Virus record (IMG/VR): IMGVR_UViG_3300021426_000067
Source of the DNA: a virus
Lineage: Duplodnaviria > Caudoviricetes
Direction: 5' to 3' (one strand)
Length of the DNA stretch: 64,000 bases
A program made the translations under genes and the position numbers. Position 1 is the first letter of the stretch, and every line of letters begins with the position of its first letter. Under the pieces are notes generated by a model. It saw only the letters and a list, made by a program, of their open reading frames with translations, was not told where the DNA came from and searched no databases. Positions 31,691 through 56,961 of this stretch are shown one piece after another.

Positions 31691-32024
31691 AACATTCTAC
31701 CACCCTAAATTTTGGCTCTTCCGCGCACTCCCAACCTTTTTTAGTATAAGTTGCTAAAGCCCAGCGGAAGATGCCATTTTCTTTTCTTATTCTTAATAAA
31801 TACATCTTACCAATTTCAGGAGCATCCGCCTATATATCATATTTCTTTAATCTTTTTATTATCATAATATATAACAAAAGCCTCCCCAACAGAAAATCAG
31901 CATAAGCCAACTAAGAAAGAAATAAGGGAGCGGAACCTCATGCTTCTCATTCTCATAAACCGCGGTTTTCATAACGTGCGCACCCCCCGCCAAAACAAGT
32001 CCAAGACTAACTAATATAATCCAT

Positions 32025-34539: not shown

Positions 34540-34570
34540 ATAAGTATAGTATATAATGAAAGGAGTTTTT

Positions 34571-35677
34571 ATGGGAGAAGAAATAAAAAATAAAAATGCG
34601 GGCTTTGAAAATAAAAGACCTTATCCTTTATTAGATAAGACTATTAAAGACCCGCATGAACGTAATGAAATAGTCCATAAAATAGTTGCGGAAGTCCCCC
34701 CAGAAAAATTAACTCCTTATTATTTAGAATAGCTTACCAAATATTTAACAGAAACTCCTGATACAAAAAAGGCGCGGACAGTTTTAACTAACAACCGCAT
34801 GGTTACTGTAACTAAGCGTGAAACTTCTTATGAAGGACTTATTTCAAAATTGGAGAATGGTGAAGATGGTATTTATAATTTTATGACAGGTGGCGATAAA
34901 AATATTTTATTGGTTCCAAAAATACAAATTACAGAAAATGATATAGAGACAATTCCAGGTTTAAAATAGTTAAGAGAAGAAATAAAAAAAGTTGAAGCTA
35001 AACAAAAGACAGCAAAGGGAAGACAAAAATATTTATTAACAAAGCAATTAATTGAAATGCGGCAAGACCAATACGTTTTAAAAAATATTTATAAACCGCC
35101 TATTACAATGATGAAAGTTACAAAAAATCTTCATCAAATTGATTTAAGTTAGCACGTTACGACTAATGAAAAAGGAGAGCCAGAAAGTCATTGTGCTGTG
35201 TCATTTTTTAATCCAGATCATGTTTGTTATCTTTTGTGCAATTATTCTAAAATTAAGGAGGATTGCTGGGGTCATTTTGATAGCGATTGGTGGTATTTCA
35301 TGGAAGACTTTGATGCTCTTGTTGATAGAGCATTAAAAGAACAACATCCTATTTTATATGATATTATGATTTATAAAATTGATGGAATGTTGAATAAAAC
35401 TATATCAGAAAAGATTCAAGAGAAATATGATGCTTATTATACTGTTGAGCATCTTTCCAGTATATGGCGTAAGAAAATACCTAAAATAATTGCGGAAAAG
35501 GCAAAAGAAGAATGGCTTTTATGGCATTACACTATGGAAGAAAAAGGGCATTGGAAAAGATGCTCTCGTTGCCATGAAATAAAATTAGCTCATCCTTACT
35601 TTTATACAAAAAATAAAACTTCTAAAGATGGCTGGTATAGCATGTGTAAATGTTGCAGAAATAAAAAGAAAAATTAA
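34571..35677 (+). CDS. putative regulator (HTH/sigma-region-4-like plus C-terminal Zn finger), 3 in-frame TAG
   Basis: AGGAG RBS, ATG 34571 in frame with 35198-35677; CSRC..CKCC. Confidence 0.6.
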
Positions 35678-35743
35678 GGGCGAAAAATCTAAATTTATAT
35701 AGAAGTTTTTTAAAAGAAAAAGAGAGAAGAAAGGAGGCATTTT

Positions 35744-37084
35744 ATGGCATTAAAGATAAAAGGACAAGTGGAAGATGCCAATGGGAAATGTAAATGTTAG
35801 AGATGCGGTAAGCGGATTGGTCAAATAAACTTTTATACTTATAAAGATGGTAGTAAATGTGAAATTTGCAAACCTTGTTTAACCGCACATATAGATAACT
35901 TTGATCCTACTACTTTTGAGTGGATTCTCGAAAAAATGGATGTACCTTTTATACCTACTGAATGGAATGTTCTTAGAGATAAGGCTTTTGCTAAAGACCC
36001 TTATAAAATGAATGGTATGTCTGTTATTGGAAAATATCTTGCAAAGATGAAATTAAAACAATGGAATAAATATGGATATGCAGATACTCCAAAAATTATG
36101 AAAGAGATGGAGTAGGAAGAAGAAAGAAAGAGAGTTGCTCAATAGACAGAAAGACTTCGCCATGAAGCTGAACTTAAAGTTAAGTTAAGTGAAGGAAAAA
36201 TTTCTCAGGCTTAGTATCAAACTCTTGTTAGCACAGAGACTCAAAATAAAGAGTTGGCGCGATGGGGTAATGCAATTACTGGAGAGCACTTAGGTCAGCC
36301 TGGATTCCAAGTTCACGGTTCCCCGCAATCTTATGCAGAAGCATTAAGTCGAGCAAAAAATCCTTTTCAATAGCAAAATTTCATGTCAGAGAGTTAGTTG
36401 ATTGACCCTGGCGCGGATTTAGAAAAAGATGAAAAAATGTATCTTGCGATTAAATGGGGAAGACTTTATACTCCCGCTCAATGGGTTGCTCTTGAGCAGT
36501 TGTATAATGAATTTATGAACTCTTTTGATATACAGGGCGCCGCCAGAATAGATACTTTGAAAAAAATTTGTAAAACATCTTTAAAGATGGATTAGGCTAT
36601 AGATAGCGGCGATATAGATTCATATCAGAAATTATCAAGAGTTTATGACACTATGATGAAATCCGCAAAGTTTACAGAAGCGCAGAATAAAGATGGTGAT
36701 GGTAAGAATATTGATTCAGCTTCTGCTATTGTAGATTTTGTTGAAGCTCATAGCGGACAAATTCCTCGCATGAAAATTGAAGAGCCTTTGGATATAGTAG
36801 ATAAAATTATTTTTGATTTAAAATCTTATACTCGAAACTTAATTTATGATGATCCTTCTCTTGCTCAAGAAATTGAAAAATATTTACAAGATAAAAGAAT
36901 TTCTGAACAAATGAAAAAAGATAAAGAGGAGGCTGCAGCTAAAGGATTAGATTATGTTCCATTGGAAGATTAGGATATGGTAGTTTATAAAGATACTTTA
37001 AGACATATGTCTGAAGAAGATAAAGAGTTAACTGATGAAAAAATCGAAACAGACTATGGGAAAAGGAGAGTACAACCTAAATGA
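35744..37084 (+). CDS. Zn-finger protein upstream of terminase (terminase small subunit candidate), 8 in-frame TAG
   Basis: AGGAGG RBS; one frame joins 36398-36595 and 36653-36973; ATGA overlap with terL. Confidence 0.6.
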
Positions 37085-38817
37085 ATTTAAAATAGTTATT
37101 ACAACTGTCTTCTGATAGAGAATATAAAAAACAAGGATTATCTGAAGAAAGATTAACTGCAGATATAGATGAGTTAAGAAGAATAATTGCTTTTTTTAGA
37201 GAGTATCCTGATATTTTTGTAGATTTTATTAAAGGCAAAGACAGTACCTTTAATTTTTTATTTTATCAAAGAATTTTTCTTAGAAATGTTATGCGGCATA
37301 GATATGTATATGCAACATTCCCTCGTGCTTATTCTAAGTCTTTCCTATCTATGATGGCTTTAATGATTAGATGTATTCTATATCCTAATTCCCATTTATT
37401 TGTAACAACAGGTGGCAAGGAGCAGGCAGCTTCTATTACTGTTGCTAAAATAGAAGAAATATGTAAATTAATTCCTGGATTAAATAATGAGATAAACTGG
37501 GATAGAGGTGTTTCTACTAAATCAAAAGATAATGTAAAATACGTTTTTAAAAATGGCTCAAGTATTGATATTCTTGCAGCAAGGCAATCTTCGAGAGGAC
37601 AACGTCGAACGGGCGGTCTGATGGAATAGTGTGTTCTTATTGATGGAGATATTTTAAATGAAGTTATTATTCCTACAACAAACGTTGATAGACGTTTATC
37701 AGATGGCAGCCGCCATAAAGAAGAGAACGTAAATAAATCTCAAATTTATATAACAACCGCAGGATGGAAAAATAGTTTTGCTTATCATAAGTTAATATAG
37801 ATTTTAATTAATTCAATAATATAGCCTGATTAGTATATGATAATGGGCGGAACTTATGAAACCCCAGTTATATCTGGTCTTTTGGACGAGAACTTTGTAT
37901 AGCAACTGCGCTTACAAGGAACTTTTAATGATTAGTCATTTAATAGATAGTACAGAAGTATTTGGTCAGGAGATGTAGAAAATGCGTTTTTCTCATCTGA
38001 AAAATTTGATAAATATAGAGTTTTATTACAACCAGAATATTAGTATAGCGGACGCTCATCTAAAAATGCGTATTATGTATTTGGAATTGACGTAGGCCGT
38101 GTGGGTTGTACTACAGAAATTTGTGTATTTAAAGTAACTCCGCAAGTACAAGGAGCTGCTCATAAGACTCTTGTTAATATTTTTACATATGATGCAGAAC
38201 ATTTTGAAACTCAATGTATTCATATTAAACATTTATATTATAAATATAAACCTAAACGAATTGCGGTTGATGCGAATGGATTAGGAGTTGGTTTAATTGA
38301 TTATTTAATTAAGTCTCAAGACACTGAGGATGGATAGTATTTACCTCCTTTTGGAGTTTTTAATACTAATGATTATCCTGAATATAAAAAGTTTGTAACT
38401 CCTGAGACTGTTAAAGATATTTTATTTTTAATCAAAGCTAACGCGCCCATTAATACTGAAGCATATAGCTATGCTCAAACTCAAATGTTTAGTGGTAAAA
38501 TTAGGTTTTTAATAGATGAAGGACAAGCTAAAACTAAATTAATGGCTACTAAGCAAGGGCAAAATATGAATATGGATGAGAGAAATGAATATTTAAGACC
38601 TTTTATTTTAACGTCTATTTTAAAAGAACAAATGTTAAATCTTGTAGAAGAAAATGAAGGAGTTAACATTATTTTAAAACAAAGCAATAGAAGTGTTAAA
38701 AAGGATAAATTTTCAGCTTTTATATATGGATTATATTATATCCGATATGAAGAAGAATTAAGTAAAAAACGAAAGAAAAGAAATATATCAGACTTTTTAT
38801 TTTTCACGCCAAGTTAA
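37081..38817 (+). CDS. terL: terminase large subunit, 10 in-frame TAG (578 aa)
   Basis: FPRAYSKS Walker A variant, GGLME* Walker B, YITTAG coupling motif, GIDVG/VDANG/KDKFSA nuclease motifs; three track fragments in one frame. Confidence 0.9.
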
Positions 38818-38875
38818 GGTCAAGTTTTATTAATTCAATACGCGTTTTTTTATATAAAGATAGAAAGGAGAAAAT

Positions 38876-39238
38876 ATGCGTGCATCCAGAGGAGAAATAA
38901 AAATAGAAGAAATTTTAAAAGAGTCTGGGTTAGAGTTCGCAGAAGAATACTCTTTTCCAGATTTAGTAAGTAACACAGGCCGCCCATTAAGATTTGATTT
39001 TGCGGTTTTTGATGATTAGCATAATCTTGATTTTTTAATTGAATTTCAAGGAATACAGCATTATGAAGCAAAAAGTAAATTTGGTGGGATGAATGGATTA
39101 AGAAAACAACAATATAATGACATGAGAAAAAGAGAATATTGTCGATAGCATGGGATTAAACTGGTTTTAATTCCCTATTGGGAATAGGCTATAATTACTT
39201 ATGATTATATTCTTAATGCGGCTTGGAATACAGATTAA
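38876..39238 (+). CDS. PD-(D/E)XK / Vsr-like (DUF2726-type) endonuclease, 3 in-frame TAG
   Basis: SRGEIKI..LRFDF..LIEFQGIQHY..D..KREYC..IPYW; absent from ORF track because of TAGs. Confidence 0.75.
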
Positions 39239-39254
39239 AGAGAGGTATTTAAAG

Positions 39255-40847
39255 TTGATTAATCGAATGGCTTAGATAAAGAAAAAAGGCTTTAATATGC
39301 CGATTGAAACTGAAGAATACCAAATTCCTGAAAGTGCGAATGGATATGTTCCTATTGACTTTTCAAAAATTCGAGTGGGAGTAAAAACCTTATCAGATGC
39401 CGTTTATAAATTAGGAGATTTTCAAAGAATAAACCCTCGATTAGCAGATAAACGTCAGGTTTTAGAAGCTATTCATTATGGGGATTTAGAAAGAATGAGA
39501 GATATTTCTAATTATTTTTATAAAATCAGTGGTATTTATCAAAGGTTATGTCGATACATGGCATATATGTATAGATATGATTGGTTAGTAACTCCTTATT
39601 ACAGTGAGACTATGAAGCCAGAAAAAATAAAAGAAGGTTTTATGCAAACTTTAACTTTCTTAGATAAGTTTGAAGTAAAACGTTTCTTTGGTGAAGTTGC
39701 ATTAAAAGTAGTTAGAAATGGTTGTTATTATGGATATTTAATTGCTAAGAATGGGACAGTAGTAGTCCAAGAGCTGCCGCCCAGATATTGCAGATCCGTA
39801 TACATATCATCAAATCGGGAGCCTGTAGTTGAATTTAATATGAAATATTTTGATGATGCTTTTCCTTCTATTGAGTTAAGACAAAGAATCTTAAAAATCT
39901 TTCCTGCGGAATTTGAAAAAGGATATAAATTATATAAACAAGGGAAATTAAAACCTCAATATCCTGGAGATTAGGCTGGATGGTATTTACTTGAAGTTGG
40001 CTCTGTTATTAAATTTAATTTTAATGGGGAAGATTTTCCTCCTTTTATTGCAGTAATTCCCGCCATAATAGACCTTGACGCTGCGCAAGACTTAGACCGT
40101 AGAAAAATGGCACAACAATTATTGAAAATAATTATTCAAAAAATGCCTATTGATAAAAATGGTGATTTAATATTTGATGTGGATGAAGCTCAACAACTTC
40201 ATAATAATGCGGTTAAAATGCTTTCTAAAGCTATTGGTATAGATGTTTTAACTACTTTTGCGGATGTTGATGTGGCGGATATGGCTGATAATAAAACTTC
40301 TACTACAACAGATGAATTAGAAAAAGTTGAACGTACAGTATACAATGAAGCTGGTACTTCCCAAATGTTATTTAATACTGATGGAAACATCGCTCTTGAA
40401 AAATCTATTTTAAATGATGAGGCTTCAATGTGGAATTTGATTCAACAGTTTGAAACATTTTTAAACACTCTATTGACACCTTTTAATAAAAGTCCTAAAA
40501 AGGTTACTTATAGAGCGCAAATTCTTCCTACTACAATTTATAATTATAAAGAATTAGCTAAACAATATAAAGAACATACTCAATTAGGTTACTCAAAAAT
40601 GTTACCGCAAATTGCTTTAGGTCAATCTCAAAGTGCTATCTTAACTACAGCTTACTTTGAAAATGATGTACTTGATTTAGTTAATGTATTTATTCCTCCG
40701 CTAATGTCCAGCACAATGAACGCAGAAGTTCTCAATAGAGGAAAAACTGGAGAAAATGCGAATGGAAAAGAAGGCGCAGGAAGACCTGAAAAAGCGGATG
40801 ACCAAAAATCAACAAAGACTATTCAAAATCGTGAATCTATGAATTAA
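39255..40847 (+). CDS. portal protein, 2 in-frame TAG (530 aa)
   Basis: position after terL, size; 39297-39974 and 40107-40847 in one frame; low-complexity tail with GRP motif. Confidence 0.8.
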
Positions 40848-40940
40848 GTCAGAAAATTTTTCCAAAAATTTTGGTCGGAAGTTATTAAAAGATTTGTTTG
40901 AATTTTTATATTATATGAAGAAATAAGGGGGACTTATTTT

Positions 40941-42278
40941 ATGCACCAATCAGTTGCAACAATAGACTCTCCTCAATTCTTAAATCTTCAACCTCTTGAT
41001 ATTAACCCTTTAATGTCAAAATGTGAGATAAAAGTTCTTTATGTAGGAGCTAATAGAAACCGTAGTTTTATTACGGAAGAGGTTGCCGCGGAAATGGGTA
41101 AAACCTTACGTGGCGCGCCTATTGTGGGTTATTATCGTAAGAATAAGGAAGATTTTACAGATCATGGAGAAAAAGTTATTATTGATGATGAAGGAGTAAA
41201 GTTTGAGTGTCAAACGATTCCTTATGGTTTTGTTTCGCCAGATGCTAAAGTTTGGTTTCAAGATTTTGAGGATAATGATGGAATGGGTAATACAGTTACT
41301 CGTAAATATTTAATGACAACTGGTTACCTTTGGACTGGCCAATTCCCAGAATCCAGCTTACCTGTGGAATAGGGTCGTCCGCAATCTATGGAACTTTATG
41401 AAGATTCTGTTAAAGGATCTTGGCAAACAAATTATGATAAAGGAATGGACTTCTTTATTATAAATGATGCAATTATTCAAAAAATTTGTATCTTAGGAGA
41501 CGATGTTGAGCCTTGCTTCGAAGGCGCTTCTGTAACGGCTCCAGATGTAAGTACAAAATTTACATTAGACGACAAATTTAGGCACACACTTTATAGTATG
41601 ATGCAAGAATTAAAGAGTGCCTTAAACGGAGGAGGACAACAGATGGAAAATCTTGAAAACACTGTAACTGCTGAAGAACCTGTTGTTGATTTTACTCAGG
41701 AAAATGCAGCTACAGAAGTTGATGAGAACAAAGATGCTTCTATTCCCGCTGATTTCGTCAAAAAAGATGATGAAGAAAAAGAAGAGAAAAAACCTGCGGA
41801 AGAAGAGAAATCTTCAGATGAAGGAGATAAAGAAAAAGATTCTAAAGATAGTTCTGATGATAAAGAAGATGACGATGATGAAGATGATAAAAAGAAAAAA
41901 GATCAGAAATATGAACTTCTTGAATCTAAATATGCGGCTTTATAGGCTGCATATCAAACTCTTCAAGCCCAATGTGCAGAACTTATTGATTTCAAAAAAT
42001 CAATAGATAATCAGCGTAAGGATGAACTTATTGCAGAATTTTATATGCTTTCTGATGATGATAAAGCAGATGTTATTCGCAATAAATAGAAGTATTCTTT
42101 AGATGAGATTAAAGCTAAATTAGCAATTATTTGCTTTGATAGAAAAGTTAGTTTTAACCCTTCAGAACAGAAAAAAGAAGAAGAAGTTGTTACTTATTCT
42201 TTAAACAATAATGAAAATAACAGTCAACCAGAATGGGTGAGAGCTGTTAAAGAACAAGAAACACTACTTGGATATTAA
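40941..42278 (+). CDS. prohead protease / scaffold fusion, 3 in-frame TAG (445 aa)
   Basis: NRN..PIVG..H..QSMEL..CILG..PCF protease motifs, acidic linker, coiled-coil C-terminus. Confidence 0.75.
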
Positions 42279-42290
42279 TCTATTAGGAGG

Positions 42291-42899
42291 ATGCTAAAAA
42301 TGGCAATTGTAATGAAAAGAATAGGTTATGGACAGGTTGAGCCTAACCACCTTTCTGGTATTGTGACTGGTCAAATTTATGCTCAATTACCTGCTCAGAT
42401 TGCTACAACAACAGGTACAGGAGATACTGCCGTTACTACTATAACTCCTATTGCTCAACTTGAGCAAGGACAATTTGCAAAATATGATTATGCAAATGGC
42501 GCGGTTAACTTTACCGGTGATGGTGAATTTATGCTTGTCTATAATGAAGAAAAACTTTATGATGAAAGACAACAACATCATAAGGATTTCGTTTATAAAG
42601 CTACTGATTTTACTGATGGAAAATTATTCCCTCGTTTAATCAGAACTTATGTTGGAGATATTATGACAACTAATACCCTTGCTACTGCTAATACTTCCAA
42701 TGTTGCTGAGGTAAATTCTTCCCTTAGCGTTTCCGTTGGTAATTATCTGACCGTTGATTCAAACGGTTTCTTAGTAGTTGCTCAGTCTGGCAACTCTGCT
42801 GCTACTACAATGCCTTCAAGTGGTATGGTTTGGAAAGTTGTTAAAGAATACACAATGCCAGATGGACAACCTGGTATTAAAATTCAGAGAGTGCAATAA
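42291..42899 (+). CDS. capsid decoration / minor head protein
   Basis: between scaffold and MCP; no TAG. Confidence 0.6.
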   Translation: MLKMAIVMKRIGYGQVEPNHLSGIVTGQIYAQLPAQIATTTGTGDTAVTTITPIAQLEQGQFAKYDYANGAVNFTGDGEFMLVYNEEKLYDERQQHHKDFVYKATDFTDGKLFPRLIRTYVGDIMTTNTLATANTSNVAEVNSSLSVSVGNYLTVDSNGFLVVAQSGNSAATTMPSSGMVWKVVKEYTMPDGQPGIKIQRVQ

Positions 42900-42922
42900 T
42901 AAGGAATAGGAGGAAATAGAAA

Positions 42923-44011
42923 ATGGCATTAACAAGAGATCAACTTATTGAGTTAGCCAGAGCCAATGCGAGAGCTTCATTAAATCCTTCTGTCGCTTAC
43001 TCTTTTGGCGGAGAAAAACTGTCAGCAGAGGCACTGGATAAAACTTTTATTAAGGAGTTAAATGAATTAGGTGCAACTCCTCAAGCATTTAGAGAAAATA
43101 AAAATCTTATTTATACATTAATTGAAGTAAGCCTTACAGAGATTCTTCCGCCTAAGGTTCTTCAAAGCTACGGTCAATTCGCGGATGTTCAAACTTTTGC
43201 TCAAGGTACAAAACCTGTTTATAAAGTTAGAATTAGCGAGGCTTCTAAGAAACGTGCTAAACAATTCGTTACAAGAGTTGGTTTAGCTGGTCGTTATGAA
43301 GTCTTCAAACTTGATGGATATTCACTTGAAGTTCCTACAGCAGCTTTCGGAGGAGCTTCCAGGGTAGAATGGGAAGAACTTCTTGATGGTCGTATGACAA
43401 TGAGCGATTACTACAACTTAGTTCTTGAAGGAATGGACGAAGCTGTTTATCGTGAAATTGCGAAAGCTCTTGAAGCTACAGTTGCTGGTATTAAACCTGC
43501 AAATAAAACTGTCCAAACTGCTTTTAATGAAAAAGCTATGGATCAATTACTTATGACTGCAGATATGTATGGAAAGAGTTCAATTTATTGTACTTTTGAA
43601 TTTGCGGCAACTATGATTCCTGCAGCAAATAGTGGTATGTGGTCTGACAGTATGAAAGAGCAAATTTGGAACAATGGCGCATTTGCAAATTATAAAAACC
43701 ATTCAGTAATTATTCTCCCTCAATCTTTCACAGATGAGACTAATACTGAAAAAGTCATTGATCCTTCTTATGCTTGGATTATTCCTAATGGTGCGGAGAA
43801 ACCTGTAAAAGTTGCTTTTGAAGGTTCAGCACAAGTTAAATCATTTGAGAACCGTGACTGGTCAACAGAAATTCAGACATACCAAAAACTGGGTGTAGCT
43901 ACTTACATGATTAATCCTGGTATTTGCGTATATCAAAATACTTCTTTAAAGAAAGCTATCCATTATCCAATTGGATCTGATAACTTCGATCCCGTACCAG
44001 TTAATCCTTGA
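42923..44011 (+). CDS. major capsid protein
   Basis: 362 aa, strong AGGAGG RBS, synteny, followed by terminator; no TAG. Confidence 0.8.
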   Translation: MALTRDQLIELARANARASLNPSVAYSFGGEKLSAEALDKTFIKELNELGATPQAFRENKNLIYTLIEVSLTEILPPKVLQSYGQFADVQTFAQGTKPVYKVRISEASKKRAKQFVTRVGLAGRYEVFKLDGYSLEVPTAAFGGASRVEWEELLDGRMTMSDYYNLVLEGMDEAVYREIAKALEATVAGIKPANKTVQTAFNEKAMDQLLMTADMYGKSSIYCTFEFAATMIPAANSGMWSDSMKEQIWNNGAFANYKNHSVIILPQSFTDETNTEKVIDPSYAWIIPNGAEKPVKVAFEGSAQVKSFENRDWSTEIQTYQKLGVATYMINPGICVYQNTSLKKAIHYPIGSDNFDPVPVNP

Positions 44012-44032
44012 TGATTAAATAAAAATGTGAAT

Positions 44033-44065
44033 ATGGGGAGAATGAGTAATTCTCCCCATTTTTTT
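44033..44065 (+). terminator. intrinsic terminator
   Basis: ATGGGGAGAAT..ATTCTCCCCAT plus T tract. Confidence 0.8.
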
Positions 44066-44094
44066 ACTATAAGAGATAAAAGGAGTTTTTAAAT

Positions 44095-44667
44095 ATGATT
44101 AATAAAGATACATTAATAAAAGTTACTAATAAATATAATGGAACAGTGGGTTATGATGTTCCTGATTTAATGGTGCATAGAGAATTTTATCCAGGAGAGT
44201 ATAAAGAAATTACTTTTGAAGAATTAGAAAAACTTTCTTTTGCACCAGGCGGAGACGTTATTTTAAATCAATTTCTTGAAATTGATAATAAAGATGCGGT
44301 AATGAGTTTATTTGGAAAAGAACCAGAACCAGAATATTATTATACAAAAGCAGATATACAAGAGCTTATGTTGAAAGGTTCGTTAGACCAATTTTTAGAT
44401 TGTTTAGATTTTGCTCCAGAGTCAGTTAAAGAAATTATTAAAGACTTGGCGGTAGAATTACCTTTAAATGATGTAGCAAAAAGAGATGCCATTAGAGATA
44501 AAATGGGTTTTGATGTTTCAAAAGCAATTGAAATTAAAAATACTAAATTTGATGGCGGTGATGAAGATACTTCAGGAAATAAAACTCAGACAAAAAGACG
44601 TGCTCCCGCGCCTAAGGCGGCGCCCGCTCCATCAGGTCGTCGATACACTCCCGCTTCTAAAGAATAA
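44095..44667 (+). CDS. hypothetical virion-module protein
   Basis: 190 aa, AGGAG RBS. Confidence 0.65.
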   Translation: MINKDTLIKVTNKYNGTVGYDVPDLMVHREFYPGEYKEITFEELEKLSFAPGGDVILNQFLEIDNKDAVMSLFGKEPEPEYYYTKADIQELMLKGSLDQFLDCLDFAPESVKEIIKDLAVELPLNDVAKRDAIRDKMGFDVSKAIEIKNTKFDGGDEDTSGNKTQTKRRAPAPKAAPAPSGRRYTPASKE

Positions 44668-44688
44668 TTTTTTATAGGGGGTATATAA

Positions 44689-45246
44689 ATGAATACAACT
44701 TCTTTTTCACTTGTATATGACTCCTTCCTTTCAAAAATTACAGATGATATGTATTTAGAACTAACGGAGCTTGATACATTTAGAATGTTAGAACAGCTTT
44801 TATGTTCTGCTATTGAGAGATTTGAATTTCCACGAGTAAATATATGGGATTATGATTTATTTGAAATTGAAGATGAAAGAACTTATTGTGGCGTAGAAAG
44901 CCAAAATATAGAAGTCCCAGTAATTATTTATAGTGGAGGATATTTTAATAATCCGTTGACGCATGAAGAAATTAATATATTATCTCATTATATGATTGTA
45001 GAATGGTTAAGTCAACAACTTGCCAGTGTAGAAAATACACGCATGAAATATAGTGGTTCAGATTTTAAATTTACCTCTCAAGCAAATCATATGCAAAAAC
45101 TTCTTCAATTGAAAAAGGATTATGAAAGAGAGGGCTTTCATCTTCAACGTTTATATAAAAGAAGAAAACAGGATAAAAATGGCATTATGAGATCTACTTT
45201 TGATGTTATTATGCGACCTGTGACTTATACAACTGATTTAAATTAA
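44689..45246 (+). CDS. putative head-tail adaptor
   Basis: synteny; helical 185 aa. Confidence 0.55.
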   Translation: MNTTSFSLVYDSFLSKITDDMYLELTELDTFRMLEQLLCSAIERFEFPRVNIWDYDLFEIEDERTYCGVESQNIEVPVIIYSGGYFNNPLTHEEINILSHYMIVEWLSQQLASVENTRMKYSGSDFKFTSQANHMQKLLQLKKDYEREGFHLQRLYKRRKQDKNGIMRSTFDVIMRPVTYTTDLN

Positions 45247-45270
45247 TTTTAAAATTGGAGGGTAAAATTA

Positions 45271-46623
45271 ATGGCTTAGATTTCAAAAATTACCTTACCT
45301 TCTGGTGTTACGTATGACTTAAAAGACGCCCAAGCGCGTTCAGACATTGAGGCTTTACAAACCAGTGTTACAGGTGGTATGCACTATATTGGTGTTACCA
45401 CAACTGCATTAACAGATGGAGCAACTACAAATCCTATTAAAATTAATAATGCTGATGTTACTCCTAAAGCGGGTGACATTGTTATGTATGGAAGTTTAGA
45501 ATTTGTATGGGCAAGTAGTGATGGAAAATGGCATGAATTTGGTTCAACAGGCTCTTTAAAAAGTTTAGCTTTTAAAGATAGTGCTTCTGGAAGTTATACT
45601 CCAGAAGGAAGTGTTTCACCTACTTTTAAAGGCTCTCAAACAGGAGTTACTATTACAGTAGCAAATAATACAAGCGGAAATTATACACCTGCAGGAACTA
45701 TTACTGCTCCAACTTTTACAGGACAGTCAATGACTTCAACTGGGTCTTATACTCCTGCGGGAACTGTCGATATTAGTGTTACTAAAACTGAAGGACAATC
45801 TGTTACAGTTTCGGCGGCTTCTTCAGGTACTATAACATATACTCCTAAGGGAAGTATTGGTACTATTAATTTTACTGGTGAAAATACTGCTTTCTCTGGG
45901 ACTTATACTCCAAGTGGAACAGTAAGACTTACTGGAAAAACTCCTACAACTACAACAGTTTCTTCTGCTAATTCTGGAACTGCGACTTACACTCCTGCGG
46001 GTAGTATTCAAGTTCCTATAAAAGTAAAAACTGCGGGGACTACAGCTACAATAAAAAATCCTTCTACAATTCGAACTGTAGCAAAAACTGTAGTGGCTGC
46101 CGCGCCAGGAGCAACTGCGCCAAGTAATAATTTAACTTATTATAATGTAACAGGAGAAACTTTATCTTTATACCAATTAGGCTATACAACGGATGCGGCT
46201 ATTTCAACCAGTAATGTAACTGTAAAAACAGGAGACGCAGCATATGAGGCTGACTCTCCTACTTTCCAAGGAACTGGAGCCAGATTAGTTACAGATAGTT
46301 TCGATATCCCTACAACAGCTGCTTTTGAAGGAACAGAGGGAACTGTAAATGTTTCAGGAACTCCGCTTGGAAGTGTAAATACTCCAGCCTTCACAGGAAC
46401 TGGAGTTAGACTTGTTACAGGAAGTATTTCTGTTCCTAAGACTATTTCTGGTGGATTCCATGGAACAGAAGCTACTATTTCTGTTACTGGAACTACAACA
46501 GGACAAGTAGGAGCACCTACATTTAATGGTACTAAAGTTCAAATTAGTGGTACAACAACTGCGGCAGGTACTATTGAAAATACTGAATTTGTTGGTACAC
46601 CAAAAACTGTTACAGTATCTTAA
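45271..46623 (+). CDS. Thr/Gly-rich repetitive structural protein (head fibre/decoration), TAG at codon 3
   Basis: GGAGG RBS before ATG GCT TAG ATT; repeated YTPxG and PxFxG motifs. Confidence 0.7.
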
Positions 46624-46644
46624 TAAGGAAGGAGGGCGCCGATT

Positions 46645-46794
46645 ATGGCAGATATTTCAGAAATTATCCTTCCTAACGGAAATCAATATGATTTAAAAGA
46701 TAAATTGGCAGCGCATGTTGTATTTTCATAGACTCAACCGACAACCCAAAAAACTGGTGACGTTTGGGTAATTATAGAAGAAGTTGAAACATAA
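46645..46794 (+). CDS. 49 aa protein sharing N-terminus with 45271 gene, 1 in-frame TAG
   Basis: MADISEIILPNGNQYDLKD versus MA*ISKITLPSGVTYDLKD. Confidence 0.6.
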
Positions 46795-46825
46795 GGGCGT
46801 CATTGGAAATTTGGAGGGTTAAGTT

Positions 46826-47155
46826 ATGATATTAAAATATAATATAGATATAGGAAATAATGTAATTTCCCATAGATTGCAAAATCTTATTAATCAAATT
46901 TATAAACTCCTACCCAGTCGAGAAGAAGGAATAGATTGGGAAAAACCTTTAGAAACTATTATGGAAGAATTAGCGGGATTAGAAAGATTAATGGATGGCG
47001 GCTATCCGGAAATCTTTCTTCCGCTACTTAGTAAATTAGAAGGACTCTTTTTATTAACTGACGTTGAAGATTTTTCTTGTTATAGAAGAACTATTTTTGA
47101 ATGTTTAGGATTAATGAATGAGTTAAAGAAAGAATTATGTCCTTAGAATTATTAA
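46826..47155 (+). CDS. hypothetical virion-module protein
   Basis: TAG 47144 followed three codons later by TAA 47153. Confidence 0.6.
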
Positions 47156-48120
47156 ATAAAAGATTACAATATCAGGGCGGTAATCAATAGCAAAGATTCA
47201 TTAATGATAAATTAAGAGGTTTAAAACGCGCCCTGTTATATTCTTATCAAGCCGCGACCGCTATTTTAGCAGATGGTAAAGAGTTTAGATGTTTGATTAA
47301 TCCAGATAAAAATAAGCCTGCTTATGATAATAAAATTCTTTCAATCCCATATAAAGATATTTGTTTAAATATGCCAAGAATAGGTAAAACTATTGAAGGA
47401 GAAATTCCTATTGATATTAAACCTGGTGATGTTTTTGTTTGGAAAGAAACAAATACTCATTGGTTAGTTTATTTATAGTATATTGAAGAGGATGCTTATT
47501 TTCGTTCATAGATTCGTAGATGCGATCAATAGATAAAAGTAAATAATGAAGAATATTGGGTTTATATTAGAGGTCCTGTTGAAACATCGATAGAATGGAC
47601 TCAGAAGTCAGGAATAGAATGGAATACATTAAACTATTCTTTAGTTATGTATATAACCGCTGATGAAAATACTAATAATTATTTTGAAAGATTTCAAACT
47701 GTAAAAGTAATAGACCCAAGATATAATACAGAAAAAACTTGGCAAATAGTAGGCGTTGATCCTTATTATGGTGATGGTATTTTACAAATCTTTTTAGATG
47801 AATTTTTTGAGAATCCTATTGCAGATGCTGAAAAAGAATATCAAAAAGAACATTATAAATAGAAAATAATAGATGAAACACAACCTTATATCAGCGGCCC
47901 CACAACTGTTTCACAATATAGTAAAGCATATTTTGAAATTCATAATGTGAGTAATGGGCACTGGTACTTAAAATGGGATGGAAAAGAACAAGATTTGCAT
48001 AGTTCTTTAAATATTATTCCGTTAAATATTTCTATGGGAAAATTAGGAATATTTACGTTAATATATAGAATCGAGGGGTAGGAAGATATTACTCTTGATG
48101 TCAAGATTACCGCTCTATAA
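47137..48120 (+). CDS. putative head-closure/neck protein, 6 in-frame TAG
   Basis: one frame joins 47293-47478 and 47647-47862; synteny. Confidence 0.65.
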
Positions 48121-48149
48121 GGAAGAGATAAAAGGAGTAGACAAAACAT

Positions 48150-48755
48150 ATGAAAAAAGATTTAGCTTTAAGACCAACTGATTTTACTTCATCTTTTTTA
48201 TCATGTGAAAAAGATTTAGAATCAATTTTAAGAAAATTGTTTGTAGAAAGTCAACCTTATAGTAATTAGCTAAAAAAATTATTAGTTATTAACACTAAGG
48301 ATTGTTTAGATAATAAAACCAGTTAGGTTTATAATAATGCAATAAAAGATATGAGTCTTGCAAAATTGCGGGAATAGGGTTATATTAAATTTGAACCTAA
48401 AGTAAAAATGCCAGAACATGAAGATATAAAAAGTTATTTAATTTTTTCTTTTGATAATTTTAAATCTAATTATAATAATCCTCAATTTAGAGATTGTAAT
48501 GTTTATATTGATGTTCTTTGTCATACTGACTATTGGGATTTAGGAGGTTTTAGGCTTAGACCTTTAAAGATTTGCGGTTATATTGATGGCATTTTAAATA
48601 ATGCGCGTTTATCAGGAATTGGAATGTTTCAGTTTTCGGGATGTAATGAATTAGTTCTTGATGAAACTCTATCTGGTTATACATTATCTTATGCCGCTAT
48701 TCATGGCACAGACGATGTTTTACCAAGTCAGCATAATTGGGTGAAGAATGGTTGA
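48150..48755 (+). CDS. putative tail completion/terminator protein, 3 in-frame TAG
   Basis: AGGAG RBS, in frame with 48408-48755. Confidence 0.6.
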
Positions 48756-49500
48756 TGAATTACTTTTATTATCAGGTAATGATATACCCTTTCCCGAAGC
48801 AAAATTAACGATTCATCAACCGCGTTTAAAAGAAATTGCATATCTTACTTAGACTAACTTTTGGCCAAGCTGTTAGTTATTAAAATTTAATAAAGAATCT
48901 TTAATAGATTAGGACAGAATTGGATTAACGAATATGTCAAATTTTAATATAATAATGACGATAGTTCAAGGGAAAGATTTAGAAGCAAGACAAGCAAAAA
49001 TAAATATGCTTTCTCTTTTGACTTTATTATTTCCTACAAGCGAGATTATTTTAAATAAGAAAGTAATTCAAATACGAAATGTTTAGACTGGTGAAACAAG
49101 TTAGATTAATTAGTAGAATTATGATTCTTTTAAAAAAATCTTAGTTACAATGTTTTGTCTCACGAATAAAGATAATGAATAGTATAATCCAAGCGGTGAC
49201 TTAGCTCGTAAAATTGCTAATAAAATTAAGCAAGGTAGAGAGCAAAGGGCGAAGCTGGCGCCAGAAGGTAAAGTTGCTATTTTAAGTCGTTATGTATCTA
49301 TTCTTGCTGTTGGTTAGCAGAAAGATATGAATGACTTAATGAATTATACTGTTTATCAACTCATGGATGAATTTAACCGTTTTAATTTAAAACTTCAATA
49401 TGATTCTTGGTAGAAATTTAAAATTGCGGGAGCCACAGGGATGAAAGATCCAGAAGATTGGCTAAAAGACATTCATGAAATAATAAATAATGAAACATAA
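48748..49500 (+). CDS. virion-module protein with 10 in-frame TAG including TAG-TAG (250 aa)
   Basis: 753 bp with no TAA/TGA in frame; fills the gap before the tail tube gene; missing from ORF track. Confidence 0.7.
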
Positions 49501-49532
49501 TATTTTGTACAAAATATAAGGAGGAAATCCAA

Positions 49533-50486
49533 ATGAAATTTGGTTTACGTGAAATTGCTAATGTAGTTTTCAAAGCAAAAAACGACCAGCAGATCGGACC
49601 TTATACATTTAAAAAGGGACAACCTGTGTTTTATATTGATTCTGCAAAAACATCAACTGTAGAAGGAGCAGCTACTACAGTATATGCAACTGGTGGACGC
49701 GGTAACACTCGTTTAATTGCTTGGGAAGGTGAAAAAACTTTAACATTTACTGTTGAAGATGCTCTTCTTTCTCCTGTAAGTTTCTCAATGCTTTCTGGTG
49801 CTGGTCTTTTGAAAGGTGCTGCTGATTCTACAAACAAAATTCATTTCCATCAAACTACTAATGCTGTTATTAGTACAGCTCAAGGTGGCGGAAAAGAGAT
49901 TGATTTAACAGATGCTTTAGAGAGTGGAGAGGAAATTTGTGGAACTGCTCCTATTTATGTTATCAAATTAGATGAATTTGGTGATTTAACTGGTGAAATT
50001 ATTGAAGGATGCACTGTTGCAACAGGTGGTAAAAAAGTTACTCTTGGACAAGACGCAACTGCAACAGGACCTGTTATGGTTGACTACTATGTATTAAAGA
50101 ATGAAGGTACTGTATCAGAACTTCAAATTGATGCTGGTAACTTTGGTGGATATTACTACGTAGAAGCCGATACATTATTCAGACGTCAGGCGGACGGTAA
50201 AGACTTACCTGCTAATATTACATTCCCTAACGTTAAAATTCAGTCTAACTGGACATTCACAATGGCGGCTACTGGTGATCCAAGTACATTTACATTTACT
50301 ATGGATGCGTTCCCTGGTTATACATATTTTAACCGTACTAACAAAGTGCTTTGCGCTATCCAAATCGTAGATGATGCGACAGAAGTTAAATCTAATGTTA
50401 AACCTCTGTTCCCTCATCCTGCTGGATTTGATATTGACGAATCTAAAACAGATTCTGTTTCGGGATCAGATGAATCTAATATTTGA
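49533..50486 (+). CDS. major tail (tube) protein
   Basis: 317 aa, AGGAGG RBS, FTMAATGDPSTFTFTMD motif, terminator follows; no TAG. Confidence 0.7.
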   Translation: MKFGLREIANVVFKAKNDQQIGPYTFKKGQPVFYIDSAKTSTVEGAATTVYATGGRGNTRLIAWEGEKTLTFTVEDALLSPVSFSMLSGAGLLKGAADSTNKIHFHQTTNAVISTAQGGGKEIDLTDALESGEEICGTAPIYVIKLDEFGDLTGEIIEGCTVATGGKKVTLGQDATATGPVMVDYYVLKNEGTVSELQIDAGNFGGYYYVEADTLFRRQADGKDLPANITFPNVKIQSNWTFTMAATGDPSTFTFTMDAFPGYTYFNRTNKVLCAIQIVDDATEVKSNVKPLFPHPAGFDIDESKTDSVSGSDESNI

Positions 50487-50506
50487 TACTAATTAACAAT
50501 TAAATA

Positions 50507-50536
50507 AGGGGAACTTTTATAGTTCCCCTCTTTTTT
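50507..50536 (+). terminator. intrinsic terminator
   Basis: AGGGGAACT..AGTTCCCCT plus T tract. Confidence 0.8.
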
Positions 50537-50551
50537 ATTAGAGGAAAAAAT

Positions 50552-51901
50552 ATGAGTGCTTTAGGAGATTATATTCATTTATATACTTCACATTATTTAG
50601 ACCACGGTACAAAAAGAAAAACTGGATCAAATGAACCTAACTATAGTATAGATATAATTAATAATAGAATAACAACAAATGTTAAACCTATTAATTTATC
50701 AGCAATTAGTGAGCTTGAAAGAAAATTAAAATTAAATTCTGATTTAAAAGAAAATCAAGAATTAACTAAAGCTGAAGAATAGAGACAAAGATTAATAGAT
50801 ATTTGTTATCAATTATTATATGAACGAAGTCAAAGAATAGATGGAATTAAAAGAGTGGCAAAAGTTGCTAAGGGTGGTGAAATATTTTCTAAAGGTGGTA
50901 AGAAAATCGCCTTAGGAGATCAAACTTGGGCAGCGCATATGACTCATGCACAATTAAAATAGCTTAGTGAAAAAGCTAATGCTATATATCGTGAAATTCA
51001 AAAATTAATAAATAAAATTAATAATACTTATGGACCATATTCTTATGATGATTTTACAAAACTTGTATCTTTATTTAATGAATATACTCATTTAGCTAAA
51101 GACCCAGATAGTTCTACAATGGGTGAAATTTTACGAGCTTTAAAAGTTTATAGATATAAAGGTGCAGTAAATGAAATTTCAGGCAACTTTGGAGAAATGA
51201 TGGTAGCTATTTGTGATGATGCTTGTAACGATTTAGCTGAAGAATAGGTAAAAAAAGTAATAACTGAAGCTATTGTTGGACAGTAGAGAACAGCTATTAG
51301 ATTTAATAAAAATTTAATTTCTACTGGTTATAATTTCATGGGAACTAATCCTGATGATCAAAACCAATATTCTTTAGGATCAACGCAAAATAAAGTAGAT
51401 GTGCGAATAAAAATAAATGATGAAAATGTTTATGCAAGTGTAAAAACTTCTCAAGATGTTTCTAAAAATCCTCGTCCAAAATTACAAGATGTTAATTTAT
51501 TAGTTTCTTTAACTTTTTTAAACAGTTATCCTGGATTAGAAGATTTTGGTAACCATTGGTTAAATATGCACGTTATGCACACAAGTCATAATAAACAAAA
51601 GATATTAGATGAAATACTTAAAAAAGAAATTGCTTATGAGGCGCTTTCAAGTGGTAACCCTTTTAAACAAAACGTAGAAAGTGCAAATGTTTTTGTATAC
51701 ATTAACAGAGCAAATGGAAAAGTATATGTTCAATCAGTTCAAAAACTTTTAGATGATATGGATAGAATAGGTGGATTAAAAGAAATACCACAATTACATT
51801 TTAAAAATGAAAGACAAGATGAAATATGGCAACGTATCAATGATATTTTGGCTCAAGTTCATGCAACAAAATTACAAGTTGCTATGAATATTATTTATTA
51901 A
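50552..51901 (+). CDS. hypothetical protein, 4 in-frame TAG (449 aa)
   Basis: 50552-50782 and 51338-51901 in one frame; GNFGE..KVDV..SVK could be PD-(D/E)XK-like. Confidence 0.6.
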
Positions 51902-51929
51902 TAAAAAAGAGATAAAAGGAGATTTTATT

Positions 51930-52493
51930 ATGAAAGTATCTTATGCTAATATGAAATTAAAAGTAAATACAGATGTTAATACTTTTGATTTTCATGGACA
52001 AACAATAGAAGTGTTAAAATATCTTCCTGCAAGAGATAAATATGATTTATTAATGATTACTTTGCAGAAAGCATAGAACGCAGATGGTACATATAATGAT
52101 TTTTTATTAAATCTTTATTTTGAATTAAATTTAGTTTATATGTATACTAATATTTCTTTTACAGAAAAACAGCGGGAAGATGAATTTAAACTATATGATT
52201 CTTTACAAAGTAATGGCTTTTTTAAAGAATTTTATGGAGCAATCGACGAAGATGAATATAATGAGTTGTATACACAACTTAATACTATAAAAAATACTAA
52301 TACTATTAATAGAAATAGTGTAGGCGGACTTCTTAATAAAGTTATTAGCGACCTTCCTGCAAATGCAGAAGCAGCTGCTAAGATTGTTGAAAACTTCGAT
52401 CCAAATCAATTTAAGTCAGTTGTTGATTTTGCAACATGGGCAAATGGTGGAAGAAGTATTGTAACTAATCAACCAATGCCGCCTATGAATTAA
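51930..52493 (+). CDS. hypothetical protein (possible tail assembly chaperone), 1 in-frame TAG
   Basis: AGGAG RBS, in frame with 52140-52493. Confidence 0.6.
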
Positions 52494-52535: not shown

Positions 52536-52982
52536 TTAAAATTTTCCTGAATCACCAAATCCGCCAGCTCCACGGTTTGTATCTGATAAATCTTTTACTT
52601 CAATAAAATCCATTTCAAAATATGGAAGAAGAATCATTTGAGCAATTCTTTCGCCAGGTTCAATACTTTGTATTTCATCAGTATCATTATGAACTGCTAC
52701 AATGTATTCTCCTCGATAATCTGAATCACAAATACCCACACAGTTAGCGGGGCGGAGTCCGCGTTTAGTAGCAATACCAGATCGCGCCACCAATGCTGCA
52801 AAAGTTCCATGCGGTAGTGCGAATGAAAGTCCCGTTCCGATCTTTACAGTAGAATGAGGAGCAATATTAATAACATGATCAGTGGCTGCATATAAGTCAT
52901 AACCTGCCGCACATTCACTTCCTCTTGTTGGAGTTTTAGCTAAATTATTTAATTTTTTAAAATCAACTCGTGTAAATTGCAT
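52536..52982 (-). CDS. dut: trimeric dUTPase
   Basis: AGYDL, ARSG, GICDSDYRGE, RIAQ, RGAGGFGDSG motifs. Confidence 0.95.
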   Translation of the reverse strand: MQFTRVDFKKLNNLAKTPTRGSECAAGYDLYAATDHVINIAPHSTVKIGTGLSFALPHGTFAALVARSGIATKRGLRPANCVGICDSDYRGEYIVAVHNDTDEIQSIEPGERIAQMILLPYFEMDFIEVKDLSDTNRGAGGFGDSGKF

Positions 52983-53218
52983 TAGTCCACCTCATATACA
53001 ACTTTTACATCAGAAATAGGTTCTTTAATGTCATTAAAAACCTTAGTTAATACTACTTTATAATATTCTTCAACAACTTCTCCTTTTGATTTACGCTCTT
53101 TATGTTCAGTTGAATATTTACTAAGAATATATGAGCCGTCTTGCTTAGCTTCTTCTATTGTTCTTGTCGCTTGTTTTTCTGTATCAAATCTATGTGTTTC
53201 TACTGTACTAATTAACAT
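52982..53218 (-). CDS. hypothetical protein
   Basis: 78 aa, AGGAG RBS. Confidence 0.6.
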   Translation of the reverse strand: MLISTVETHRFDTEKQATRTIEEAKQDGSYILSKYSTEHKERKSKGEVVEEYYKVVLTKVFNDIKEPISDVKVVYEVD

Positions 53219-53230
53219 ATCATTCTCCTT

Positions 53231-53491
53231 TTAAATACATTTTACAATTATTTTATTTGCGTTATATTTCGTTAATTCTTTTTCTTGAATTTCTTTAACA
53301 ATTCTCTATGAAAACTGTTTTGCGCCAGATAAGTCTACCTATTGAATATCATAAGTATATGCTAATTCAATTATATCTTCTGAGATATTATTTAATTTAC
53401 TATATCTCATTTCAAGTTTATTTCCATCCTAATAAACATAAAGACGTTGACATATATCAAATGGATGAATAATCCCAATAATTTTTTTCAT
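53231..53491 (-). CDS. hypothetical protein, 3 in-frame TAG
   Basis: AGGAG RBS; MKKIIGIIHPFDICQRLYVY*DGNK; fills gap between neighbours. Confidence 0.65.
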
Positions 53492-53503
53492 ATATTATTC
53501 TCC

Positions 53504-53884
53504 TTAACATTCAATAACACCATTGTCATAATTAAATAAATAATAGACAAAGGCTTCTTTTCCAATTTTAAGCCAAATTTCCCAATCCTCTCCCTTTTTA
53601 TCAATAGAAAGAATATCTCCTCTTTCTTGAAGCAATCCAATAAGTTCTGAGGCTGCAATTTTAGGCGGATTGGGATTTGCTTTTTGATATAAATGAAATA
53701 ATGTATAATCTCGTCTTTCATGGCAAAGTAACATAGCATATCCATCTATCTGCCAATTAAACCATTCTTCAATGTCTTGCTGGGCAGTTTTAATAGCTGC
53801 CGCGCTTAGAGTACCTTGATTTAACATAAGTCGTTTATTTATATCATATAAAGTTCCCAATGAAATTTCTTTTGTATTACCCAT
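53504..53884 (-). CDS. conserved phage hypothetical protein
   Basis: MLLCHERRDYTLF..EIW..YYLFNYD. Confidence 0.65.
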   Translation of the reverse strand: MGNTKEISLGTLYDINKRLMLNQGTLSAAAIKTAQQDIEEWFNWQIDGYAMLLCHERRDYTLFHLYQKANPNPPKIAASELIGLLQERGDILSIDKKGEDWEIWLKIGKEAFVYYLFNYDNGVIEC

Positions 53885-53898
53885 ATTTTATTTTCCTT

Positions 53899-54381
53899 TT
53901 AACAAATTTTTTTAGCATATTGATTATTTGATGATAATTTTACCCCCAACACTTCATCAAAATGCGGTTTTTGATTAGGTATAAATCTTCCAAATTTAAT
54001 TATAATATTTGAAAATATTTCTTTTAACGCACTTACTTCTTTAGAAATCTCATCCTCATTATAACCAGTATAAATTACTACATCATCTTGATTATGGTAT
54101 TGATGTTGAAACCAAAGAAGAAAATTATTTATTTCTCCAAAAGAATCAAATGGTTCTAATCCTTGGAAAACAATTGCTTCAGTAATAGGATTGTTTATAT
54201 ATCTAATAATAATGCTTTCACAAGAAATGTCGATATTTGGTTCTTTTACCAAAGAACTATTTTGACATACTGGTTGACCACATTCTTTATCACATTTAAA
54301 ATTACAATAAGGAAATTCAATTACCATTGAGGGTTTTTTATAATTTACAAAATCTTCATCAATTAATCCTTTTATTATCAT
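53899..54381 (-). CDS. nrdG: anaerobic RNR activating radical SAM protein
   Basis: CNFKC..C.N, GLEP, IYTGY, KFGRF, SNNQ; adjacent to nrdD. Confidence 0.85.
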   Translation of the reverse strand: MIIKGLIDEDFVNYKKPSMVIEFPYCNFKCDKECGQPVCQNSSLVKEPNIDISCESIIIRYINNPITEAIVFQGLEPFDSFGEINNFLLWFQHQYHNQDDVVIYTGYNEDEISKEVSALKEIFSNIIIKFGRFIPNQKPHFDEVLGVKLSSNNQYAKKIC

Positions 54382-56299: not shown

Positions 56300-56500
56300 T
56301 TACTCATGCTCCTTTATCCATTTTATTGCTTTAGAAAAATTTAAATATTGATCGTCTACCTGTAAAACAGGGACTTCCATAAAACCTAATTCTAATAGTT
56401 GGTCTATATCATTGGAAATCTAAAAATCAATAGACAAACTTTCTAATTTTCTTTTTAAGACTGTGCATTTTGGACAGCCTGTTGAGTATAGGGTGATCAT
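56300..56500 (-). CDS. glutaredoxin/NrdH-like protein, 1 in-frame TAG
   Basis: LYSTGCPKC, VPVL; GGAGG RBS. Confidence 0.8.
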
Positions 56501-56573
56501 AAGCAAACCTCCTATTTCAGTAAAAATCATCTAAAGCCATCTATATTATTTAAAAAAGAAGTAATAAAATTAT

Positions 56574-56948: not shown

Positions 56949-56961
56949 ATTATGCTCCTTT

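Follow-up and report, generated by a model that had tools for sequence, protein, structure and literature searches.

The 64,000-nucleotide stretch of IMG/VR record IMGVR_UViG_3300021426_000067 analysed here (the window; all positions are those of the whole stretch) contains a packaging and virion module, at 34556–52493 on the plus strand, in which TAG is efficiently reassigned as a sense codon. Comparison with related phages makes it highly probable, as part of the best explanation of the window as a whole, that this codon encodes glutamate (Glu) and not the glutamine (Gln) of translation table 15. The original prediction, made from the sequence alone, had recognized TAG as a sense codon and had left the residue open.

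By the same explanation, the window is very probably part of a phage of ~130–145 kb, of the SPbeta-, Enterococcus EF1- and phAss-1-like siphovirus type. Its host is probably a standard-code, Gram-positive anaerobe of the gut or rumen; the nearest relatives in GenBank were obtained from human faecal viromes or have Gram-positive hosts. SPbeta and phi3Ts, Enterococcus phage EF1, Lactococcus phages 949 and AM1, Bacillus phages Tsamsa and Thrax1, and Geobacillus phage E3 resemble the window in their YonF-type terminase, portal, major tail protein and module order. All of these phages use the standard code, unlike the window.

It is likely that a clade of large gut and rumen phages has evolved a code in which TAG specifies Glu, while TAA and TGA remain stops, a combination that is not listed for any virus or prokaryote. 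The codon would be read, in late genes only, by a tRNA(CUA) with the body of a tRNA-Glu, to which the host's glutamyl-tRNA synthetase (GluRS) attaches Glu, and the change would be independent of the use of TAG for Gln in phAss-1.

In-frame TAG codons in the late block

Under translation table 11 the region from 34.5 to 52.5 kb falls into fragments. Read-through of TAG only converts it into 18 abutting genes on the plus strand, 14 ending in TAA and four in TGA, with AGGAGG-like ribosome-binding sites before most of them. These genes contain 55 in-frame TAG codons and no in-frame TAA or TGA. Cover of the region by open reading frames (ORFs) of at least 150 amino acids rises from 0.55 to 0.94 when TAG is read as sense, compared with 0.56 in a control in which TGA is read as sense. 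The read-through products match PHROG profiles nearly end to end, including those of the portal (54–495 of 501), phrog_3313 (16–471 of 480) and phrog_4051 (5–245 of 247), and the same applies to the terminase and phrog_3314 products; there are therefore no frameshifts. TAG makes up ~12% of the Glu-type codons of the packaging and virion genes, with up to 10 in a single gene, a density which requires true reassignment rather than leaky readthrough. The base at +4 after TAG shows no special readthrough context.

These results bear out what had been proposed from the sequence. Full-length, abutting genes led by ribosome-binding sites and ending in TAA or TGA, without frameshifts or internal TAA/TGA, had been described for read-through of TAG alone, together with the need for efficient reassignment, and all were recovered; TAA and TGA never interrupt these late genes of the window. 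The TAG counts given for individual genes were also exact: 10 in the terminase, eight in the gene upstream of it, two in the portal, three in 40941–42278, six in 47137–48120 and 10 in 48748–49500, the last including the tandem TAG-TAG at 49111–49116. The two cases in which a TAG near the end of a gene has a TAA close behind it are present, at 47144/47153 and 61726/61723.

The pattern extends well beyond the window. A terminase search of IMG/VR recovered 76 loci, and five complete relatives (130–144 kb, three of them with terminal repeats) were examined. In ~25 other contigs of the same clade, late-module homologues contain 6–21 TAG per 1000 aligned codons, with TAA and TGA essentially absent. 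Contig L023, for example, has 74 TAG and no TAA/TGA in 4556 aligned codons, and the corresponding counts are 93 and 0 in L052, and 94 and 1 in L025. The late module of sister-clade contigs has 0–0.3 TAG per 1000 codons. In the complete relative G001, coding cover increases from 0.59 to 0.83 with TAG as sense (control 0.67), while that of the standard-code sister genome G007 is unchanged. The rise in coding density is thus specific to TAG in a relative as well as in the late block.

Positions of TAG are often common to separate assemblies; one terminase column is TAG in nine of 14 sequences. The L002 terminase also contains 10 TAG, and its protein is identical to that of the window outside the TAG positions. 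This agreement across independent assemblies excludes consensus error without recourse to reads, and the TAG pattern recurs in complete genomes that have terminal repeats. Neither consensus errors nor TAA/TGA interruptions as frequent as those by TAG, either of which had been named as grounds for abandoning the proposal, were found in the window or its relatives.

Probable assignment of glutamate to TAG

TAG was translated as X, and the residues and codons opposite it in homologues were tallied. The terminase codon alignment comprises 14 recoded sequences, with 1–17 TAG each, and 12 TAG-free sequences of the sister clade, ~63–75% identical. In the TAG columns, the other members of the recoded clade have GAA 283 times, GAG 62 times, GAT 52 times, CAA 13 times and CAG once. 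The 12 sister sequences have Glu in 342 of 517 non-gap cells, aspartate (Asp) in 88 and Gln in 10, and many of the columns are Glu in all 12. When the TAG sites of all TAG-bearing genes in the window are considered, high-scoring segment pairs of at least 80% identity place GAA (278), TAG (182), GAT (83), GAG (66) and CAA (5) opposite them, and CAG never. The BLOSUM62 sum over 49 sites compared with the standard-code clade is 45.8 bits for Glu, 24.8 for Gln and 17.2 for Asp. Conserved residues opposite TAG in that clade are Glu at nine sites and Gln at three. In addition, the number of Glu-type codons per terminase is even between the two clades (45.1 vs 43.9) only if TAG is counted as Glu.

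Two of the terminase sites are conserved over a much greater distance. Residues 183 and 290, both TAG in the window, are Glu in all five cultured standard-code phages compared (Geobacillus E3, Bacillus vB_BcoS-136, Lactococcus AM1, Thrax1 and the SPbeta-like phi3Ts). Residue 183 (TAG at 37627) is the second acidic position of an invariant hhhh-[DE]-E motif of Walker B type, preceded by a YQ motif and by PRAYSKS, which resembles a P-loop. The terminase and seven other late proteins had no match when searched by sequence against Pfam and the PDB, so the Walker motifs were assigned by alignment with the cultured YonF-type terminases and not from a solved structure. We take the spacing of the YQ, P-loop and Walker B motifs to be that of phage terminases, and the catalytic role of this Glu to be as in T4 gp17; by analogy with E256 of T4 gp17, Gln at this position would presumably abolish ATPase activity.

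As a positive control, phAss-1 was analysed with no change of method or of reference proteins. This returned Gln, with four sites Gln in eight of eight sequences, and the authors of the phAss-1 study likewise report that TAG encodes Gln (PMC10607447). The alignment of TAG with Gln expected under table 15 is thus seen in phAss-1, while in the window TAG aligns with Glu instead.

The TAG codons appear to derive mainly from GAG. In the sister-clade terminases, GAG is over-represented at the TAG columns (29% vs 13%, P = 0.002), and the base following a sense TAG is distributed like that following GAG and unlike that following GAA. GAG and TAG together form 29% of the Glu-type codons of the late block, and GAG alone forms 28% in the early genes. 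This suggests that TAG acts as a replacement for GAG, from which it is one G-to-T change away. In the terminase tree, a single branch with support of 100/100 splits the recoded from the TAG-free sequences, which is compatible with a single origin of the recoding.

The suppressor tRNA and competing explanations

The five complete relatives encode 9–24 tRNAs each, and exactly one tRNA(CUA) each (46–65 bits with the Rfam tRNA model). This suppressor tRNA, and the lack of any detected release factor gene in the same genomes, favour the reading of TAG as sense. By synteny with these genomes, the main tRNA array of the window's phage would adjoin the left end of the window and lie outside it. In four of the five relatives the D stem of the tRNA(CUA) is 3 bp, its D loop 11 nt and its variable loop 4 nt, and in all five the tRNA has a G2:U71 pair. 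A phage tRNA-Glu(UUC) gene is present in four of the relatives; it shows the same architecture in three of them and has G2:U71 in all four. Both features are absent from the Gln, tryptophan (Trp) and lysine tRNAs of the relatives. This suggests that the body of the tRNA(CUA) is of the phage tRNA-Glu type. The standard-code sister G007 encodes a tRNA-Glu(CUC) and no tRNA(CUA). No theta-like or hepatitis delta virus-like ribozyme, or other known RNA, was detected with Rfam beside the suppressor tRNAs of the relatives.

A mechanism can be proposed on this basis. The window's own genome would carry the same tRNA(CUA) in a tRNA array beyond the window, and host GluRS would charge it with Glu. Since the tRNA(CUA) lacks the U1-A72 pair that is a feature of tRNA-Gln, it may escape the host amidotransferase, which would leave the Glu unconverted. 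Suppression would then be in competition with host release factor 1 (RF1).

Several observations weigh against this proposal. A tRNA(CUA) was not found within the window, either with ARAGORN or with Rfam at the gathering threshold and at E ≤ 1; of the suppressor tRNA and release factor genes to be looked for elsewhere in the genome, the former is present in all five complete relatives but not in the window itself. The only tRNA in the window, identified by ARAGORN, is a tRNA-Asp(GUC) (18048–18123, minus strand). As for release factors, the five complete relatives contain no RF1-domain gene, no release factor 2 (RF2) gene and no recognizable anti-RF1 factor, and they also lack a gene for GluRS or glutaminyl-tRNA synthetase (GlnRS), the class Ic synthetases. 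In their anticodon arm the CUA tRNAs are similar to a phage tRNA-Trp, and their overall identity is 60–70% to Gln, Trp and Glu tRNAs alike; identity is therefore uninformative here and architecture alone discriminates. GluRS normally reads the anticodon, so its acceptance of CUA is assumed here. A different tRNA(CUA) (L130:4213–4286) is present in the sister-clade genome G008, which has no TAG in its late module, so that possession of a CUA tRNA alone is insufficient evidence of recoding. Finally, the amino acid has been deduced by comparison, and at three TAG sites the sister clade has a conserved Gln; one of these sites has a match in a close relative, where the codon is GAG.

These three sites could also reflect ambiguous decoding, in which a Glu-charged tRNA(CUA) is partly amidated, or is charged by two enzymes, to give a mixture of Glu and Gln. 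Many Gram-positive hosts make Gln-tRNA through Glu-tRNA, and the avoidance of TAG by the most abundant proteins would fit with such a mixture. This explanation nevertheless seems improbable: positions of catalytic and invariant Glu tolerate TAG, CAA and CAG almost never alternate with it inside the clade, and the acceptor end of the tRNA(CUA) is not of the tRNA-Gln type.

Less probable again is the ordinary code 15, with TAG read as Gln as in crAss-like and Lak phages and in phAss-1. It has in its favour that it is the sole TAG reassignment reported in phages whose code differs from that of the host (bioRxiv 10.1101/2021.08.26.457843), that the related phAss-1 does use Gln, and that Gln stands opposite a few of the TAG sites in the sister clade. 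It conflicts with the alternative codons in close relatives (344 GAA/GAG vs five CAA/CAG), with the 21 bits by which Glu exceeds Gln, and with the occurrence of TAG at Glu positions, including that of the Walker B-type motif, which are invariant out to the SPbeta-like phages. The tRNA(CUA), moreover, has neither the U1-A72 pair nor the D- and variable-loop sizes of the tRNA-Gln of these phages.

There is very little to recommend pyrrolysine or another residue. Pyrrolysine is suggested only by the ARAGORN label ‘tRNA-Pyl’, which is given to any CUA tRNA; the TAG sites are conserved Glu positions (pyrrolysine genes were not searched for), and the tRNA(CUA) of the relatives is an ordinary cloverleaf of tRNA-Glu type. 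Asp, the second residue in the tallies, is never the conserved residue at any TAG site. It is equally hard to believe that the TAGs are untranslated, as in decayed pseudogenes or through assembly or G-to-T sequencing artefacts: beyond the frames interrupted under table 11 nothing speaks for this, and it is contradicted by interruptions that are by TAG alone, without frameshifts, by products that match full-length profiles, and by TAG sites that recur in independent assemblies, including L002, and in genomes with terminal repeats.

Assignment to Glu sets the window's clade apart from the recoded phages described so far. Stop codon recoding in phages, its bias towards late genes and phage suppressor tRNAs have all been reported previously (Borges et al., bioRxiv 10.1101/2021.08.26.457843; Peters et al., PMC9523058). 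Borges et al. found only TAG-to-Gln and TGA-to-Trp changes in phages that differ from their host (bioRxiv 10.1101/2021.08.26.457843), and full-text searching, within the literature that can be searched in this way, revealed no report of TAG as Glu in a phage. The code 15 phages (crAss-like, Lak, Garnet and Topaz among others) resemble the window in the clustering of TAG in late, structural and packaging genes. They also share with its clade early genes that fit the host code, a phage tRNA(CUA) without a phage synthetase, and coding density that is regained when TAG is read as sense. They differ in that TAG has been assigned to Gln, by terminase alignments and proteomics, where the evidence for Glu in the window's clade is from sequence comparison; a further difference is the tRNA-Glu-type body of the tRNA(CUA) in the window's relatives. 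Some Lak and Agate phages encode RF2, unlike the five relatives.

phAss-1 (‘Phassvirus’, OQ749652; Babkin et al. 2023, PMC10607447) is closer in genome type. It has a ~136 kb genome, the siphovirus module order, a large tRNA array that includes a tRNA(CUA), and TAG in its terminase, portal and tail genes, as in phages of the window's kind; its portal is 37% identical and its capsid protein 51% identical to those of the window. The TAG sites of phAss-1 align with conserved Gln, in contrast with the Glu of the window's clade, and the two lineages thus seem to have given TAG different meanings.

TAG is read as Glu by a tRNA-Glu-derived suppressor in NCBI tables 30 (peritrich ciliates) and 31 (Blastocrithidia). 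Recoding in Blastocrithidia is named in PMC11040004. Both are nuclear codes of cells and also reassign TAA. The window, by contrast, is viral and uses the change in only part of its genes, and TAA is still its main stop, closing 14 of the 18 late genes and occurring in-frame in none of them.

If TAG is Glu in the window's clade, then one phage family has captured a stop codon for two different amino acids, and the host GluRS, in addition to GlnRS and the tryptophanyl-tRNA synthetase, would be open to co-option for a change of code. The choice of residue for a captured stop codon would not be restricted to the Gln and Trp routes that have been proposed, and GluRS would be pointed to as a synthetase tolerant of a changed anticodon. 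There would also be consequences for annotation. TAG-recoded phages are translated by table 15 in gene callers and databases, and for this clade table 15 would place Gln at ~12% of the Glu positions of late proteins, catalytic ones included, with corruption of protein families and structure predictions. The recoded clade, its TAG-free sister, at ~70–75% identity in the terminase, and the Gln-using phAss-1 could together provide a natural system in which to study the start of a code change (GAG to TAG) and its spread gene by gene. Engineering might also profit from a natural amber suppressor that inserts Glu and functions in Gram-positive hosts.

The tRNA arrays of the relatives have some further features. 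That of G008 also includes a ROOL RNA (L130:2427–3034, 274 bits), and that of G004 a transfer-messenger RNA (L113:5804–6084, 102 bits). tRNAs with a UUA anticodon, which would read TAA, are present in the recoded G001 (L108:6223–6297) and in the standard-code G007 (C1:90065–90135), the latter 85% identical to the tRNA-Gln(UUG) of G008. No in-frame TAA was seen in late-module homologues.

Gene content and uneven use of TAG

TAG is distributed very unevenly in the window. Its use differs strongly between late and early genes (Fisher P = 1.5e-18), and within the late block the variation among genes is also significant (chi-square P = 1.4e-4). TAG forms 22% of the Glu-type codons of the terminase and 42% of those of 48748–49500, where the excess has a binomial P of 0.0003. 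Five late genes, with 86 Glu codons, are free of TAG (P = 1.5e-5), and these include the major capsid and major tail protein genes. The most abundant virion proteins may avoid TAG because suppression competes with host RF1. Late proteins would be made only after the phage tRNA has accumulated, giving an early-to-late translational dependency; the distribution of TAG, which leaves out the most abundant proteins, fits such a dependency of late genes on the phage tRNA.

The first late gene (34556–35677, with an alternative start at 34571) is sigma-factor-like (phrog_5767, E 1.4e-42) and has TAG at 34730, 34967 and 35150. Its sites 138 and 199 are GAA or GAG in relatives. With three TAG in this gene, late transcription may depend on the suppressor tRNA too. 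The following gene, at 35744–37084, lies at the YonG or small-terminase position upstream of the terminase and matches phrog_3314 (4–283 of 286); in Bacillus phage Thrax1 the gene at the same position is annotated as the terminase small subunit. The YonF-type terminase large subunit is encoded at 37081–38817 (phrog_2, phrog_15503). Between it and the portal gene is an HNH homing-endonuclease-like gene (38876–39238; phrog_9084, phrog_559) with three TAG, which means that this mobile element, too, uses the code of the phage. An insertion of ~0.8 kb is present inside the terminase gene of the relatives L029, L030, L048, L056 and L062 (match of 2.5 kb vs 1.7 kb), and is possibly an intron or homing element.

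The portal gene (39201–40847; phrog_2739, E 3e-85), which also has tblastn matches to annotated portals, contains TAG at 39273 and 39972. It is followed by a gene at the head-maturation or scaffold position (40941–42278; phrog_3313) and by a TAG-free head-module gene (42291–42899). The gene at 42923–44011 is predicted to encode the major capsid protein, of HK97 fold, and has no TAG among 27 Glu codons. Its AlphaFold model has a predicted template modelling score of 0.67, and the top Foldseek matches in the PDB are all phage capsid or encapsulin shells with probability 1.0. Two head or neck genes (44095–44667 and 44689–45246) are without TAG, and a structural gene (45271–46623) has one, at codon 3 (45277). 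In the small gene at 46826–47155, the TAG at 47144 is three codons before the TAA at 47153, and this site is common to four relatives.

The gene at the neck or connector position (47137–48120) precedes one for a virion structural protein (48150–48755; phrog_6123) with three TAG and the structural gene with the highest TAG use (48748–49500; phrog_4051). The major tail protein gene (49533–50486; phrog_2729), homologues of which are so annotated in Bacillus siphophages, has none. The late block ends with two tail-module genes, at 50552–51901 (four TAG) and 51930–52493 (one TAG).

The next block (52536–63782, minus strand) is associated with replication and nucleotide metabolism, and its large genes are without TAG: NrdD (646 amino acids, 54359–56299), a DnaE-type DNA polymerase (1306 amino acids, 57161–61081) and a Dda-like helicase (61993–63174). 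An NrdG-like gene is present at 53899–54381. TAG is found in small genes of the block, at 53231–53491 (three), 56300–56530 (one) and 56574–56948 (one); that at 63531–63782 has one at codon 4, or none if the true start is that at 63737, which has a ribosome-binding site. The gene at 61721–61990 ends in TAG-TAA.

The early region (1–34267, minus strand) consists of many small genes in the standard code: 51 genes led by ribosome-binding sites, with 5395 codons, have no internal TAG. In four of the 51, a TAG stands 2–13 codons ahead of a TAA or TGA; these TAGs probably act as genuine stops, each followed by a second stop as backup. Early and replication genes in which the only TAG lies 1–13 codons before TAA/TGA are at 1955–2467, 5147–5377, 21664–21831, 26155–26283, 31671–31877 and 61721–61990, all on the minus strand. 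The terminal TAGs of the early and replication genes are probably true stops, the backup serving when TAG is read through late in infection. Apparent gains in coding cover with TAA or TGA as sense in this AT-rich region were rejected as an artefact of the merging of neighbouring small genes.

The early region is interrupted by a TAG-rich island on the plus strand (7656–10272), which may be a middle or late regulatory or lysis-type operon. It contains genes at 7656–8048 (three TAG) and 8045–8812 (eight TAG, with weak helix–turn–helix matches), and small membrane-type ORFs with TAG at 9693–9947 and 9935–10132. Between these, 8813–9310 is a 0.5-kb non-coding segment with strong GC skew, twice-repeated words (TTTGG..TTTGGTAA type and AAAAAATGAAATGAAAAA) and a GC-rich hairpin at ~9040–9066; it may be regulatory or origin-like. 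A motif of ~50 bp is repeated between early genes, at 908–960, 1889–1935, 7424–7476 and 18611–18648, and also occurs between the tRNA genes of the relatives.

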